This document shows, piece after piece, positions 53,358 to 58,005 of a DNA stretch of 64,000 nucleotides (positions are counted from its first letter, which is position 1; the number at the start of each line of letters is the position of its first letter). The stretch is from Saprospiraceae bacterium. GTDB taxonomy: Bacteria; Bacteroidota; Bacteroidia; Chitinophagales; Saprospiraceae. A program made the position numbers and the translations under genes. The stretch covers positions 21,186 through 85,185 of the forward strand of contig JBELML010000010.1 of NCBI GenBank assembly GCA_042095835.1, given 5' to 3'. A model generated the notes under the pieces. It was given only the letters and a program-made list of their open reading frames with translations. It searched no databases and was not told the origin of the DNA.

Positions 53358-53498
53358 GGGAGTGAGTCCGTTTTTGGGTTAAACTGTATAGATCAGTTTT
53401 GCTTTCTATACACTTACTTCGTATAAGATATTAACGTCTAGCCTTCAGATAAAGTATATCTGAATAGGTCAACGAAACGCCACAAAAGTAGTAATTAT

Positions 53499-53996
53499 TT
53501 ATCCTTCTTGATCCAGAATCTCCCAAGTATGATCAGAAAGCATTTTGACCGAGCTAATAAAAGTATAAGGAGGATTTCCACCCCACTCCTTTGGGCCGAC
53601 CATAGACAAGACATATTTGCCGTTACTCCGTTCGTAAAGGTGGTAGTTAAAACCGATTAGAGGTTCAAAACCAATATCTGCTTGGTAGATTTTTTCTGAG
53701 ATAGCTACCCTGTCATAGATATTTTGGGCCTGTTTAGCCAAAAGCTCGATTTGCTTGCGCAATTGATCCAATTGCATATCAGTCTGCTCATACATAGCTG
53801 ATACCGCGCGGCCTTTCACCCGACCTTTGTCGATGGGTTTAATGACTACACCACCTACGGTATGCGCATAAGGTAGTAGATGAGGATTCTCCGCCACCTT
53901 ATCTTTATCAATTGGATTGAAACTTAGATGTTCTTGTTCTTGCTTTTCTTGCTGCTCGGTCATTCCTCTACGATTTGATTCCTTCAGATTTTTCAA
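53499..53996 (-). CDS. Conserved hypothetical protein (possibly DUF2452-like)
   Basis: 165-aa ORF with a clean ATG start and no TM or signal peptide. The DUF assignment is from memory of NPID...ENPHLLPYAH-type sequences and is tentative. Confidence 0.5.
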   Translation of the reverse strand: MKNLKESNRRGMTEQQEKQEQEHLSFNPIDKDKVAENPHLLPYAHTVGGVVIKPIDKGRVKGRAVSAMYEQTDMQLDQLRKQIELLAKQAQNIYDRVAISEKIYQADIGFEPLIGFNYHLYERSNGKYVLSMVGPKEWGGNPPYTFISSVKMLSDHTWEILDQEG

Positions 53997-54095
53997 TACA
54001 AAGATCAGGATTATTCACCTGATTTGCAATTCACTCTCATGGCAAACGGATAGCAGTGACTTTAGTTTAAGGCTTAGCTGGATTGATTGTAAAAT

Positions 54096-54310
54096 TTGTT
54101 TGGGTTTAGGGTTTAGGGGGGTATGAGTTTATAAGTTTACTAGGTTAGGAGGCATGCTGACAGAGGTGACGCTGGGAACCTTTCGTTAGTGGAGATTTAG
54201 GGGTTTAGGGAGGAAATAGGTTATGGGGTTATTTGTTTATAGGGTTAATGGGTTAAGAGGAATACTGACAAAGGGGAGGTTTAAGCGTTTAGTATGTTTT
54301 GGGGTTTTGG
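54096..54310 (+). repeat. C-poor G/T-rich degenerate short-repeat block containing one copy of a conserved 32-nt core
   Basis: Runs of GGTTTAGG, GTTTATAA and GGTTAtGG-like 7-8-mers. The core gaggtgacgctgggaacctttcgttagtggag (54164..54195) recurs twice downstream of bglX. Confidence 0.7.
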
Positions 54311-54554
54311 CAAAGCATCCCAACATCCCCTTACGCTCCGCCGGGATTAATTCGACCAACGCTGCTGAAGCATCGGGTCTCATTAACTTGACACCTGACA
54401 CCTGACACTTGGCACTTGACACTTGGCACTTGGCACCTGACAAAGCATCCCAACATCCCCTTACGCTCCGCCGGGATTAATTCGACCAACGCTGCTGAAG
54501 CATCGGGTCTCATTAACTTGACACCTGACACCTGACACTTGGCACTTGGCACAT
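54311..54554 (+). repeat. Perfect 130-bp tandem duplication ending in a heptad microsatellite (GACACCT/GACACTT/GGCACTT)n
   Basis: Unit 1 (54311..54440) and unit 2 (54441..~54554) are identical over the first 80 nt and the first four heptads. Unit 1 has 7 heptads and unit 2 has 5. Confidence 0.9.
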
Positions 54555-54663
54555 AACACAGTAGAGGTATACTGTAATTCATGAATTTCCTTAAGCTATT
54601 ATTTCAAAATATAGGGGAGACTGTCGTATCATTACGACATCAATTGAGAAACCATACAGCATC

Positions 54664-56832
54664 ATGCATATAGACCAGCTATTACAACAAATGACCCTGG
54701 AGGAAAAAGTGGGTCAGATGACACAAGTCTCTATCGACATTCTACATCATGGAGAACCTATGAAAATTGAGCTTCCTCCACGGATCAATGAAGAAGCTTT
54801 CGACACTCTTGTCCGCAAAAAAATGGTGGGTTCTATTTTGAACGTACCGAGTGGCTACCTACCTAGCCGCCAAGAATGGTATGAGTTGATCAAAAAGATT
54901 CAAGACAAAGCAGAAGAAACCCGCTTGAAAATTCCCGTTCTCTATGGTATTGATGCCATCCACGGCGTCAACTATTGTAAAGATGCTACGCTTTTTCCGC
55001 AACCCTTAAGTATAGGCGCCTCTTTCAATCTCGAAAAAGCAGCACAAATCGCTGAAGCTACTGCTTACGAATGCAGAGCCGCATCTATGCCCTGGAATTT
55101 TTCCCCAGCCCTTGATGTGGGACGCAACGTAGAGTGGCCCAGAATGTGGGAGTCTTTCGGTGAGGATGTCTACCTCAATACTGTCATGGGGGTCGCTACC
55201 GTGAAAGGATACCAGGGAGATGACCCTAGCGCTAAAGACAAAGTCGCCGCTTGCCTCAAACATTTTACGGGCTATGGTATACCCTTGAGTGGTAAAGATC
55301 GAACACCAGCCTGGATTCCCGAGCGCTACCTGAGAGAATATTTCCTCCCTGCCTATGAAGCAACCATTGAAGCTGGCGCCTTAAGTATCATGATTAATTC
55401 AGGTGAAATCAACGGTATACCTGTACACGCTAGCCATTATTTATTGACAGAAATTCTACGCGGTGAGCTCGGCTTTGAAGGGCTATTGGTGACCGATTGG
55501 AGAGACATTATCTATCTACATACTCGCCACCGCATTGCTCCTACCATGAAAGAAGCGGTACGCTTGGCAGTAGAAGCAGGTGTAGATATGAGCATGACTC
55601 CTTTTAATACAGAATTCACCGATCTATTGATAGAATTGGTGAGAGAAGGCAGTATCAGTATGGATAGAATCGACACTTCCGTACGAAGAATTCTAGCAGT
55701 CAAACAACAATTGGGTTTATTTGACGAAGCGGTACATCTACCTGCTGATTATCCAGCCTTTGGAGGACAAGAGCATCAACAATTGAGCTACGACAGTGCT
55801 GCGGAGTCTATTGTTTTATTAAAAAATGAAGATCAGCTCCTCCCTTTAGCCAAGGACGCCAAAATTTTAGTCTGCGGTCCTGCAGCCAATAACCAGCGGG
55901 CCCTTAATGGTGGATGGACCTCCTCCTGGCAAGGAGATATGGCAGACGAGGCCCTCCGTAATCATCCTACTATTTTGGAAGCCATTAAAGATCGACAAGG
56001 CGATCACTTCTTTGAATACCGTGAAGGAGTCAATTATGAGGTTGAAGTCGATTTCCGAGAAGCCATTTGGAAAGCCCAGGAAGCAGACTATATCGTACTT
56101 TGCTTAGGAGAAGATAGCTATACAGAAGATTGTGGAAACCTCAATGATTTGCACATTCCTGACCATCAAATGCACCTCGCTTTAGCTATGGTAGAGACTG
56201 GCAAGCCCGTCATTTTGGTACTTGCTGAAGGTCGCCCAAGAATCATTAGTCAATTTGAAAAAGAAGTAAAAGCGGTATTAGCTTGCTTTTATCCGGGCCC
56301 GAGAGGTGGAGAAGCCCTGGCAGATATTCTTTTCGGAAAAGTGAACCCAAGCGCTAAAATGCCCTTCACCTATCCGCAATATGCCAACTCTCTCGTTCCT
56401 TATGATCATAAATATACCGAAGATAGAGATGTCGATGAATCTGGTCTATCCTTCAACCCACAATATGCGTTTGGACATGGCCTAAGCTACACTAGCTTTG
56501 AATACAGTGATCTACAACTAAACCAAAAGAGCTATAAAGCCGACGAACATATTCAACTGAGCCTCATCGTAAAAAATACCGGCCAACGCAGTGGTAAAGA
56601 AGCCGTACTCGTCTATATAAGTGATCTCTATGCCAGTATCACCCCTCCAGTAAAACGGTTAAGAGCATTCGACAAAATCGAGCTTGCCGCCGGCGAAAGT
56701 AAAGAAATCCGCTTCTCGATCAACCCTTCAGACTTATCTTTTGTTGGTCAAAACAACGAGTGGATATTAGAGGCAGGGACTTTCAAAGTAGAGATTGGTT
56801 CGTTGTCGCAGGAGTTTGAATTGTTGGGTTAA
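54664..56832 (+). CDS. bglX: Glycoside hydrolase family 3 beta-glucosidase
   Basis: N-terminal LEEKVGQMTQ, the nucleophile region GFEGLLVTDW, and a C-terminal fibronectin-like domain. The length (722 aa) is typical, and no signal peptide is evident. Confidence 0.85.
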   Translation: MHIDQLLQQMTLEEKVGQMTQVSIDILHHGEPMKIELPPRINEEAFDTLVRKKMVGSILNVPSGYLPSRQEWYELIKKIQDKAEETRLKIPVLYGIDAIHGVNYCKDATLFPQPLSIGASFNLEKAAQIAEATAYECRAASMPWNFSPALDVGRNVEWPRMWESFGEDVYLNTVMGVATVKGYQGDDPSAKDKVAACLKHFTGYGIPLSGKDRTPAWIPERYLREYFLPAYEATIEAGALSIMINSGEINGIPVHASHYLLTEILRGELGFEGLLVTDWRDIIYLHTRHRIAPTMKEAVRLAVEAGVDMSMTPFNTEFTDLLIELVREGSISMDRIDTSVRRILAVKQQLGLFDEAVHLPADYPAFGGQEHQQLSYDSAAESIVLLKNEDQLLPLAKDAKILVCGPAANNQRALNGGWTSSWQGDMADEALRNHPTILEAIKDRQGDHFFEYREGVNYEVEVDFREAIWKAQEADYIVLCLGEDSYTEDCGNLNDLHIPDHQMHLALAMVETGKPVILVLAEGRPRIISQFEKEVKAVLACFYPGPRGGEALADILFGKVNPSAKMPFTYPQYANSLVPYDHKYTEDRDVDESGLSFNPQYAFGHGLSYTSFEYSDLQLNQKSYKADEHIQLSLIVKNTGQRSGKEAVLVYISDLYASITPPVKRLRAFDKIELAAGESKEIRFSINPSDLSFVGQNNEWILEAGTFKVEIGSLSQEFELLG

Positions 56833-57050
56833 TGGGCTTAGAGTTTAGGGGGTTATGAGGTTATATGTTTATGAGTTTATGAGTTTATGAGGTTAAGAAG
56901 GCGACGCTTGGAATCTTTCGTTAGTAGAAGGTTAGGGGGTTATGAGTTTAGTGGGTTATGAGGTTATGAGTTTATGAGGTTATGAAGGCGACGCTTGGAA
57001 CCTTTCGTTAGTAGAGGGTTAGTGGGTTATGAGTTTATGAGATTTAGGTA
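56833..57050 (+). repeat. C-poor G/T-rich repeat block with about 2.5 copies of an 87-bp unit built of GTTTATGA/GGTTATGA octamers plus the 32-nt core
   Basis: Cores aggcgacgcttggaatctttcgttagtagaagg (56899..56931) and aggcgacgcttggaacctttcgttagtagaggg (56986..57018) lie 87 nt apart. They belong to the same family as the core at 54164, and in the same orientation. Confidence 0.8.
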
Positions 57051-57102
57051 GGTATACTTCTATGTAACCTATTGTTCCTATTGTGGTTTAAAATAGAATA
57101 CT

Positions 57103-57624
57103 ATGTCAGCAAGTGCAACTATGCCATACTTTATCAAACCGTCTGTCCAACTCAGCAGGCAGGAGAAAAAGGCCGCTTACGAAGAAGCGATCGCAGGAAT
57201 TGAGGCCAATCTAATCGGCATTGACAACCCAGTGACGAAGATGGCGACCATCAACGCTCTGCTCAAGACTTATCTCCCCTACTACTATTGGGTAGGCTTC
57301 TATTTGGTAGAAAATGGACGATTGGTTGTGGGGCCTTACCAGGGTACGCTTGGATGTATTTTTATTGATTTTTCTAGAGGCGTCTGTGGTAAAGCAGCTA
57401 GAGAGCAAAAAACCCAAATCGTCGGTGATGTACACGCACTAGACCAAAGCAAGGATCACATCGCCTGCGATCCCAACTCTGCTTCTGAGATTGTTGTCCC
57501 TGTTTTTAATGATAAAAAAGAGTTGATAGCTGTCTTTGATGTAGATAGCACCTTGCCTAAGTCATTTGATGAAATAGATCAGCAGTATTTAGAAGCTTTA
57601 ATCCAAAAGCATTTTGCAGGGTGA
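57103..57624 (+). CDS. msrC: GAF-domain free methionine-(R)-sulfoxide reductase (fRMsr/YebR-like)
   Basis: GPYQGTLGCIFIDFSRGVCGKAA and DHIACDPNSASEIVVPVF match the fRMsr Cys-containing motifs, at 173 aa. Confidence 0.8.
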   Translation: MSASATMPYFIKPSVQLSRQEKKAAYEEAIAGIEANLIGIDNPVTKMATINALLKTYLPYYYWVGFYLVENGRLVVGPYQGTLGCIFIDFSRGVCGKAAREQKTQIVGDVHALDQSKDHIACDPNSASEIVVPVFNDKKELIAVFDVDSTLPKSFDEIDQQYLEALIQKHFAG

Positions 57625-58005
57625 ATCTAGATTTCTTCTTATTTGATTTTGGCTCTTGAGCTACGAGGCTTGGCAAAACGAGGTACTTTAGAGGAAATTC
57701 CTCTTCCTTCGTGTGGAAACCTACGCCAAAGCGGTATTTTTCCTAGGCAACTTTCTATATTTTTCTAGCTCGACTATTTCTCCGAAATAACGTCGATTGG
57801 AGTCTCTAAAAAAGCTTGATCTTATTGAGATCGCAACTCTTCTTTTTCAATTTCACTCAATTGTTGAGCATTCATAAATAAAGGTTAGCAAGCGAATACT
57901 ACTAGTATCATATTTTTTCATAGTGGTGGTTTTTAATAGCAACGCGCAAGAAGGGAATCAAGTCTTAAATTGAGAATTTTTCAAAAAACCAAGGCGTACT
58001 ACTTG

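Follow-up and report, generated by a model that had tools for sequence, protein, structure and literature searches.

Probable membership of the C-poor blocks beside a Saprospiraceae bglX-like gene in a genome-wide, polar mosaic repeat family

We analysed the surroundings of a bglX-like gene encoding a GH3 beta-glucosidase in Saprospiraceae bacterium, within a 64,000-nt stretch of contig JBELML010000010.1 of assembly GCA_042095835.1 (the window, to whose positions all plain coordinates refer). The gene lies between two G/T-rich blocks, at 54096-54310 and 56833-57050, which probably belong to a genome-wide family of intergenic repeats that is lineage-specific, mosaic and polar, and consists of selfish or neutral DNA. 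The family itself was observed directly: it exists, it appears to be limited to non-coding spacers, this genome has it in abundance, and searches of close relatives did not recover it. The modules are arranged with constant polarity relative to one another and in a preferred order, and arrays of the same type favour neighbouring spacers. The mosaics are built from a few kinds of module: degenerate 8-nt arrays almost without C on one strand, 7-nt arrays (GTGYYAW, on the opposite strand), a hairpin of about 45 nt and an 80-nt element with two hairpins. There is no sign that the blocks serve bglX.

Both blocks proved to have the positions, composition and degenerate 8-nt arrays originally described for them. 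On the + strand the upstream block contains A49 C12 G79 T75 and the downstream block A51 C12 G75 T80; each is thus about 5.5% C, as against roughly 21% across the genome, whose G+C content is 41.7%. C-free runs extend over 44 and 80 nt in the upstream block and over 64 and 69 nt in the downstream block. Tandem Repeats Finder (TRF) and a repeat search resolved period-8 arrays of the GGTTATGA, GTTTATGA and GTTTAGG types, with degenerate units (72-85% matches by TRF), and the downstream block also contains a higher-order unit of 87 nt, present in 2.2 copies at 90% identity. On either side of the gene, the strand rich in G is also the bglX sense strand. The downstream 8-nt periodicity begins at about 56822, inside the last three codons of bglX, where the repeat search places a copy, and the upstream arrays are separated from the start codon by about 100 nt of unique sequence. 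The extreme strand asymmetry noted in the original prediction is real, but it is a property of the whole repeat family and not of the bglX locus.

Analysis of the 6.42-Mb genome with a self-match detector revealed 398 arrays of period 7 (157) or 8 (241), compared with 3-41 arrays for the control periods 5, 6 and 9-12 and 2 arrays in 60 shuffled contigs. The genome is a draft of 252 contigs, and array lengths and copy counts are approximate. About 203 spacers carry at least one array; tandem, convergent and divergent spacers are all represented, and arrays occur equally in the three kinds. All inspected arrays sit between long open reading frames (ORFs), while the count of 0 of 398 arrays inside ORFs holds by construction, the ORF map being crude and the arrays having been masked before ORF calling. 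The array types comprise GTGYYAW heptamers and the octamers GGGAGACT, GATGTGGW and GKTTAKGR, the octamers being almost without C in their G-rich orientation. Arrays of the GGTTATGA type are present at about 30 loci, and the octamer pattern has 64 genome matches versus 0 for the same pattern read backwards. Genome-wide, regions with a 68-nt window holding at most one copy of a given base number 98 for C and 79 for G, versus 4 each for A and T.

The conserved 32-nt core is indeed present at 54164, 56899 and 56986, with pairwise agreement at 26-30 of 32 positions, but it does not stand as a unit of its own: it forms the loop and 3' arm of an imperfect-palindrome hairpin of about 45 nt (CTGACAAAGG..CCTTTCGTCAG). 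The hairpin consensus, obtained from the contexts of related matches, reads TATGCTGACAAAG..G.TAGGAG.CTTTCGTCAGTAG and has the layout CTGACAAAGG - loop - CCTTT-C-GTCAGTAG, in which the arms CTGAC+AAAGG and CCTTT-C-GTCAG give a 13-bp stem with one bulged C. In an alignment of 20 sequences, 88.8% of cells pair in the stem, compared with 27-56% when the 3' partners are shifted by 1-3 columns. Covariation in the stem is modest and many pairs are G-U, which makes the fold particular to the G-rich strand. From this 20-member alignment a covariance model (model R1) was derived, which found at least 31 matches at E <= 0.01 and at least 43 at E <= 1 in this genome, both lower bounds from 150 scored candidates, and 30 of the 31 lie outside the crude ORF calls. 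Genome-wide searches with a 13-nt box allowing 2 mismatches, or with a left-arm/right-arm regular expression, stayed at the noise level of reversed controls; recognising the family took the covariance model. The earlier suggestion of an extragenic family resembling REP/BIME was essentially right, related hairpins and octamer arrays occurring at about 30 other loci.

It was also foreseen that a core confined to this locus would point to random low-complexity DNA without any family relationship. In keeping with that alternative, the exact 23-nt core, with at most one mismatch, recurs at the bglX locus only. Against it, the covariance model, the pattern controls and the shuffles together show a large, structured family spread across the genome. 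Chance is almost certainly not the explanation, and it was rejected on the array excess, the pattern control, the stem pairing and the covariance-model matches.

The second dispersed module, element X, is 80 nt long and contains two hairpins, ATCCCGAC..GTCGGGAT and TTAATTCGACC..GGTCTCATTAA. The first shows compensatory variants such as CCCGAA..TTCGGG, and a variant of X with a different second loop (AGATTGTATTGCTGCGCACTACAAT) exists. The genome has at least 41 copies of X, almost all of them lying within heptamer arrays (for example at C65:7517-7711 and C128:9340-9544, where the C numbers denote contigs), and X has no match in Rfam. The modules are joined with a marked polarity: 257 of 275 neighbouring module pairs (93%) are co-oriented, with ratios of co-oriented to opposed pairs of 24:0 for octamer and hairpin, 42:1 for heptamer and X, and 57:5 for octamer and heptamer. 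Neighbouring hairpins share their orientation in 3 pairs and are inverted in 0. The 5' flank is C-poor in 14 of 31 hairpins and G-poor in 0 of 31, and the preferred order runs from G-rich octamers through the hairpin to heptamers and X. The order of modules in the window recurs on contigs C77, C114, C221 and C1/C192.

The features of the bglX locus, all on the + strand, are as follows.

54096-54149 (+): G/T-rich degenerate 8-nt array of the GTTTAGG / GGTATGAG type, opening with three TTTAGGG-like units (TRF, repeat search, composition).
54150-54195 (+): complete hairpin element, CTGACAGAGGT - 10-nt loop - ACCTTTC-GTTAG, which holds the upstream core (model R1, 44.1 bits).
54196-54257 (+): second G/T-rich 8-nt array stretch (TRF, repeat search).
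54258-54298 (+): decayed fourth hairpin copy, its left arm TACTGACAAAGG intact and its right arm eroded (model R1, 10.5 bits, E = 0.1).
54311-54559 (+): element X in two copies of 80 nt (54311-54390 and 54441-54520), both followed by CACYTGR heptamers (TRF).
54664-56832 (+): bglX-like GH3 beta-glucosidase gene, 722 aa (Pfam Glyco_hydro_3, Glyco_hydro_3_C, Fn3-like).
56833-56885 (+): G/T-rich 8-nt array, GGTTATGA / GTTTATGA (TRF, repeat search, composition).
56886-56930 (+): partial hairpin element with loop and 3' arm kept and array-like sequence in place of the 5' arm (model R1, 21 bits).
56931-56972 (+): G/T-rich 8-nt array (TRF, repeat search).
56973-57017 (+): second partial hairpin element, an 87-nt tandem duplicate of the first with 78 of 87 positions identical (TRF, model R1).
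57018-57050 (+): final G/T-rich 8-nt array stretch (TRF, repeat search).
57103-57624 (+): GAF-domain gene (Pfam GAF_2).

The stretch at 54311-54559 is part of the same mosaic as the upstream block, and its X copies with their heptamers constitute a 130-nt tandem duplication at 99% identity (TRF period 130). This upstream mosaic is located in a divergent promoter region. By Pfam, the neighbours of bglX include genes for DUF2452, GAF-domain, type IX secretion cargo (CHU_C, SprB) and ABC ATPase proteins. The upstream copy at 54150-54195 is a full member of the hairpin family (E = 2e-11 in the local search) and folds on the + strand at -14.9 kcal/mol (z = -2.1) but not on the - strand. The two downstream copies score 21 bits each and fold no better than shuffled sequences (z = +0.4 to +1.0). 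They are 93% identical to each other, and the upstream copy is 64-69% identical to them over 45 nt, compared with up to 70% for copies on other contigs and a family median of 56%; copies on C86 and C100 have the same GTTAG variant of the 3' arm as the upstream copy.

To place the family among relatives, 30 genomes were searched: the octamer pattern gave 0-1 matches per genome, X gave 0 copies, and the hairpin model gave either no match or one marginal match each. GTGYYAW heptamers have 235 matches here and 64 in one species of the same genus, and have almost no matches in 119 further genomes of the family, drawn from 118 other genera. A 319-kb sample of the congener contained 5 arrays, which is roughly one quarter of the density found in this genome. 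The complete 6.52-Mb genome of a member of another genus in the family (G124) has (GTGAACC)n arrays of its own at 25 or more loci, so that the phenomenon recurs in the family with different units, and the families described here are young.

Orthologues of bglX in two species of the same genus (L004 and L005) share 69-70% amino-acid identity with it. In both, the same GAF gene directly follows bglX across an array-free spacer of about 115 or about 25 nt, while the spacer here measures 270 nt, and each of the three genomes has different genes upstream of bglX. It follows that the blocks arrived recently around an ancestral gene pair, and the possibility that the flanks are conserved as a pair around bglX is not borne out in these two species. 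Searches of genome and metagenome collections by peptide pattern recovered only GH3 proteins about 33-36% identical and no strain-level relatives; a look-up of the exact protein returned a single contig on record, identical to the window.

At the level of the genome, arrays of the GGTTATGA type occupy both flanking spacers of 3 genes versus 0.18 expected (permutation P = 0.001), and arrays of any type bracket 19 genes versus 10.9 expected (P = 0.01). The three genes are bglX, a housekeeping xerD and a zinc-type alcohol dehydrogenase gene, and all three array pairs are co-oriented. Since same-type arrays cluster in adjacent spacers, the bracketing points to short-range copying and not to a link with gene function. 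The GGTTATGA-type arrays at the xerD locus (C114:1-1800) are larger than any others in the genome and are accompanied by hairpins at 143-187, 1398-1443 and 1488-1533. The presence of this tyrosine recombinase beside bulged palindromes is probably a coincidence. Integron attC sites, whose core is GTTRRRY, were considered and rejected: the array-bracketed recombinase is a housekeeping xerD by the curated cut-off, and the hairpin consensus (GTCAG) has no such core.

The repeats might act on bglX RNA, the hairpins and G/U-rich arrays stabilising or processing the 3' end of the mRNA or tuning its 5' leader, much as REP elements stabilise or process mRNA in some E. coli operons. The sense orientation of the G-rich strand on both sides, the folding of the upstream hairpin on the sense strand only (with several G-U pairs) and the start of the downstream array at the bglX stop codon all fit this idea. 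However, both downstream copies lack the 5' arm and, as their z scores indicate, any better-than-random fold; two other repeat elements separate the complete hairpin from the start codon, about 470 nt downstream of it; and neither block contains a terminator-like site. Genome-wide, the G-rich strand is sense in 51 and antisense in 42 co-directional spacers (p = 0.41), a spacer-level count used in place of an array-level sense figure of 63% that is inflated by non-independent arrays, and hairpins follow a co-oriented gene in 22 cases and an opposed gene in 12. The two congener orthologues do without the repeats, and a search of 53400-57700 on both strands gave no Rfam match at E <= 5. Random orientation to the flanking genes, together with the lack of an Rfam match and of a terminator-like site, argues against any gene-linked role. 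The mRNA-stability role proposed originally thus finds little footing here, and we regard an action on bglX RNA as unlikely.

Direct repeats on either side of a single gene could also mark it as a mobile or amplifiable cassette, deleted, duplicated or transferred by recombination between its flanks. The flanks do share an orientation and a common core, and synteny among the three congeners breaks off upstream of bglX. Yet the longest exact match between the upstream and downstream blocks is 16 nt, below the roughly 23-27 bp that efficient RecA recombination in E. coli needs, which makes the pair a poor substrate for the deletion or amplification of bglX once envisaged. The bglX-GAF adjacency is moreover an ancestral arrangement, free of repeats in two congeners; bglX has no recombinase or transposase gene beside it; the unrelated xerD and alcohol dehydrogenase genes are bracketed likewise; and the sole recorded contig with the exact protein is identical to the window. 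A cassette is accordingly a very unlikely explanation.

Simple-sequence repeats are classic slippage hot spots, and the arrays might serve as phase-variation (contingency) loci, in which gain or loss of units shifts promoter spacing and switches bglX expression. The upstream mosaic does occupy the divergent promoter region, and the higher-order duplications attest to length change at the locus; against this, the degenerate units (72-85% matches) lower slippage, unique sequence fills the roughly 100 nt between the arrays and the start codon, and arrays are no more frequent in divergent or tandem spacers than in convergent ones. We give phase variation a very low probability, marginally below that of a cassette.

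Membership in a selfish or neutral mosaic family is therefore our preferred explanation of the blocks. Arrays would lengthen and shorten by replication slippage and unequal recombination, of which the 87-nt and 130-nt duplications at bglX may be products. Modules consisting of a hairpin plus arrays would be copied to near and distant spacers by a strand-specific process that recognises the hairpins, and at bglX the modules of one subfamily would have landed or spread on either side of the ancestral bglX-GAF pair. The upstream and downstream cores are likely to share one local origin. The repeats could occasionally alter spacing or promote rearrangement.

Several points weigh against this explanation. 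That the three cores have one local origin is not proven, because some distant copies are as close to the upstream copy as the downstream ones are. The mobility of the modules is deduced from their distribution only, and no mobilising enzyme was found, the two Y1 transposases of the genome being of the IS200 class and having no family hairpins beside them. Array lengths may be mis-assembled, and overlaps at contig ends may slightly inflate the counts. Finally, local GC skew shows a weak tendency to be negative on the strand that carries the G-rich side of the octamers (odds ratio about 0.4, p about 0.01), whereas heptamer orientation shows no significant relation to local GC skew in this genome. 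In G124, the heptamers are distributed 13:0 in favour of one orientation in the half with negative GC skew and 4:4 in the other (p = 0.012), which hints that array orientation tracks replication direction; the samples behind the octamer result here and the G124 heptamer result are small and non-independent.

The shared polarity, the C-free arrays and the strand-specific hairpin may conceivably be the footprint of single-strand copying that makes the mosaics, an idea that we consider unlikely. The candidates would be a single-stranded-DNA transposase or recombinase, or template switching at the replication fork, with the bulged hairpin as recognition site and the 7/8-nt units laid down or expanded beside it. 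If this were true, the repeats would have been left by an as yet undescribed way of generating repeats, common to many bacterial lineages.

With regard to a mobilising enzyme, the genome has two Y1_Tnp genes, both of which pass the IS200 model only. The model for REP-associated tyrosine transposases (RAYT) gave 27.6 bits for one of them, below its cut-off of 80, and did not match the other, and no R1 hairpin was found on the contigs of either. A RAYT link was thus rejected, both genes classing as IS200 and their homologues being scattered among relatives without the repeats. One of the Y1 loci, at C144:14642-14980 (L052), consists of a single-copy IS200-class gene with inverted hairpins of two kinds, GCCCTGAAAGGGC and ATCCCTTCGGGAT, on either side of it; ATCCCTTCGGGAT is followed by GGGATTAATTCG, a 12-mer identical to part of X. 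This REP/RAYT-like layout could make the locus the source or mobiliser of X, which we note as no more than a lead; homologues of the C144 transposase also occur in relatives without X.

The independent Logan assembly of run ERR12652140 contains a 2356-bp contig identical to the window over 54519-56874, which ends inside the heptamer array upstream of bglX and inside the octamer array downstream of it. In the draft genome, 23 of 504 contig ends have an array.

We assign these repeats to an already known kind of bacterial repeat, that of LSSR, STRR and BIME. Cyanobacterial STRR are intergenic and lineage-specific, with nested hairpin-forming dispersed repeats, and their function is unknown; Mazel et al. 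in 1990 and Elhai et al. in 2008 reportedly described such heptamers, with nested small dispersed repeats, in heterocystous cyanobacteria. The family here resembles them in its lineage-specific, intergenic tandem heptamers with nested small hairpin repeats. It differs in its units (GTGYYAW, GKTTAKGR), which are unrelated, and in the prominence of octamer arrays. A cyanobacterial STRR/SDR identity was itself rejected: the genome has no Photo_RC gene, HIP1 is no more frequent than chance predicts (53 copies in 6.4 Mb), and cargo genes of type IX secretion are present, so that this is a Bacteroidota genome.

Long simple sequence repeats (LSSR) have units of 5-11 nt, as defined by Mrazek, Guo and Shah (2007) and relayed in PMC4679880, according to which heptamers dominate and the phylogenetic distribution is sporadic. 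The family here falls within that definition, its short-unit tandem arrays being far beyond chance (398 versus 2 in shuffles). Bacteroidetes spacers filled with heptamer arrays have been described whose counterparts in close relatives have the same neighbours and short, repeat-free spacers (PMC4679880), a pattern that the bglX-GAF spacer fits. Unlike those LSSR, however, octamers here exceed heptamers (241 versus 157), the units are degenerate and nearly C-free on one strand, and the arrays are joined to hairpins with fixed polarity and a preferred order.

REP, BIME and REPIN sequences of enterobacteria and pseudomonads are extragenic imperfect palindromes of 20-45 nt clustered in mosaics together with other motifs (PMC3116915, PMC3733652), and REP families are species-specific and often tandemly reiterated together with flanking DNA (PMC3116915, PMC3733652). 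The hairpin here is likewise a repeated, extragenic imperfect palindrome, with a 13-bp stem and at least 31 matches. It departs from REP in that no RAYT gene is flanked by the same hairpins and no gene reaches the RAYT cut-off, in numbering tens of copies and not hundreds, and in being embedded in 7/8-nt arrays, which REPs are not; it departs from REPIN in that the hairpins are single or in the same orientation, not inverted doublets. We do not count the hairpin among GTAG/CGTC-tagged REPs: its end ...CGTCAGTAG has both tetranucleotides but in a geometry unlike that of published tagged REPs, since on the G-rich strand the GTAG follows the stem on its 3' side and is partly paired. Nor do the blocks resemble MITEs, as the repeat search found no inverted repeat bounding either of them; the only inverted pair detected (18 nt, 78% complementarity, 877 nt between the arms) is unrelated to the blocks. 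The neighbours of bglX include no recombinase or transposase gene of the kind that a mobile gene cassette or composite transposon would have. A full-text literature search found no paper combining Saprospiraceae, tandem repeats and intergenic.

For the bglX locus, these results mean that the blocks need no annotation as regulatory elements, and that automated pipelines should neither call ORFs through them nor infer a mobile cassette. The genome is a clean example of the recurrent, unexplained, lineage-specific bursts of 7/8-nt arrays tied to hairpins, and its regularities of period, strand polarity, module order and short-range clustering are rules that any generating mechanism must explain. 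Such repeats also break short-read assemblies, as seen from the contig ends at arrays and from the Logan contig that stops in the repeats on both sides of bglX.

Some further loci are of note. C106:2835-3245 and C232:1839-2085 share a long composite with an identical unique tail (..ATCTACCGAAGC.TTAGCGTAGGTAGACAT), in the order GGGAGACT octamers, GGAGAGAGGAGTTAGGAGAGTTGT linker, heptamers, octamers and CATTACAT-type octamers; the common composite suggests that whole mosaics are copied as units. At C33:38579-38924, beside a run of N, lies a coding repeat with a period of 45 nt that is unrelated to the mosaics and reads by eye as collagen-like Gly-X-Y. The spacer at C15:28168-28210 contains six perfect copies of TTTAGGG, the plant-type telomere heptamer, and three similar units open the upstream block at 54098-54118.

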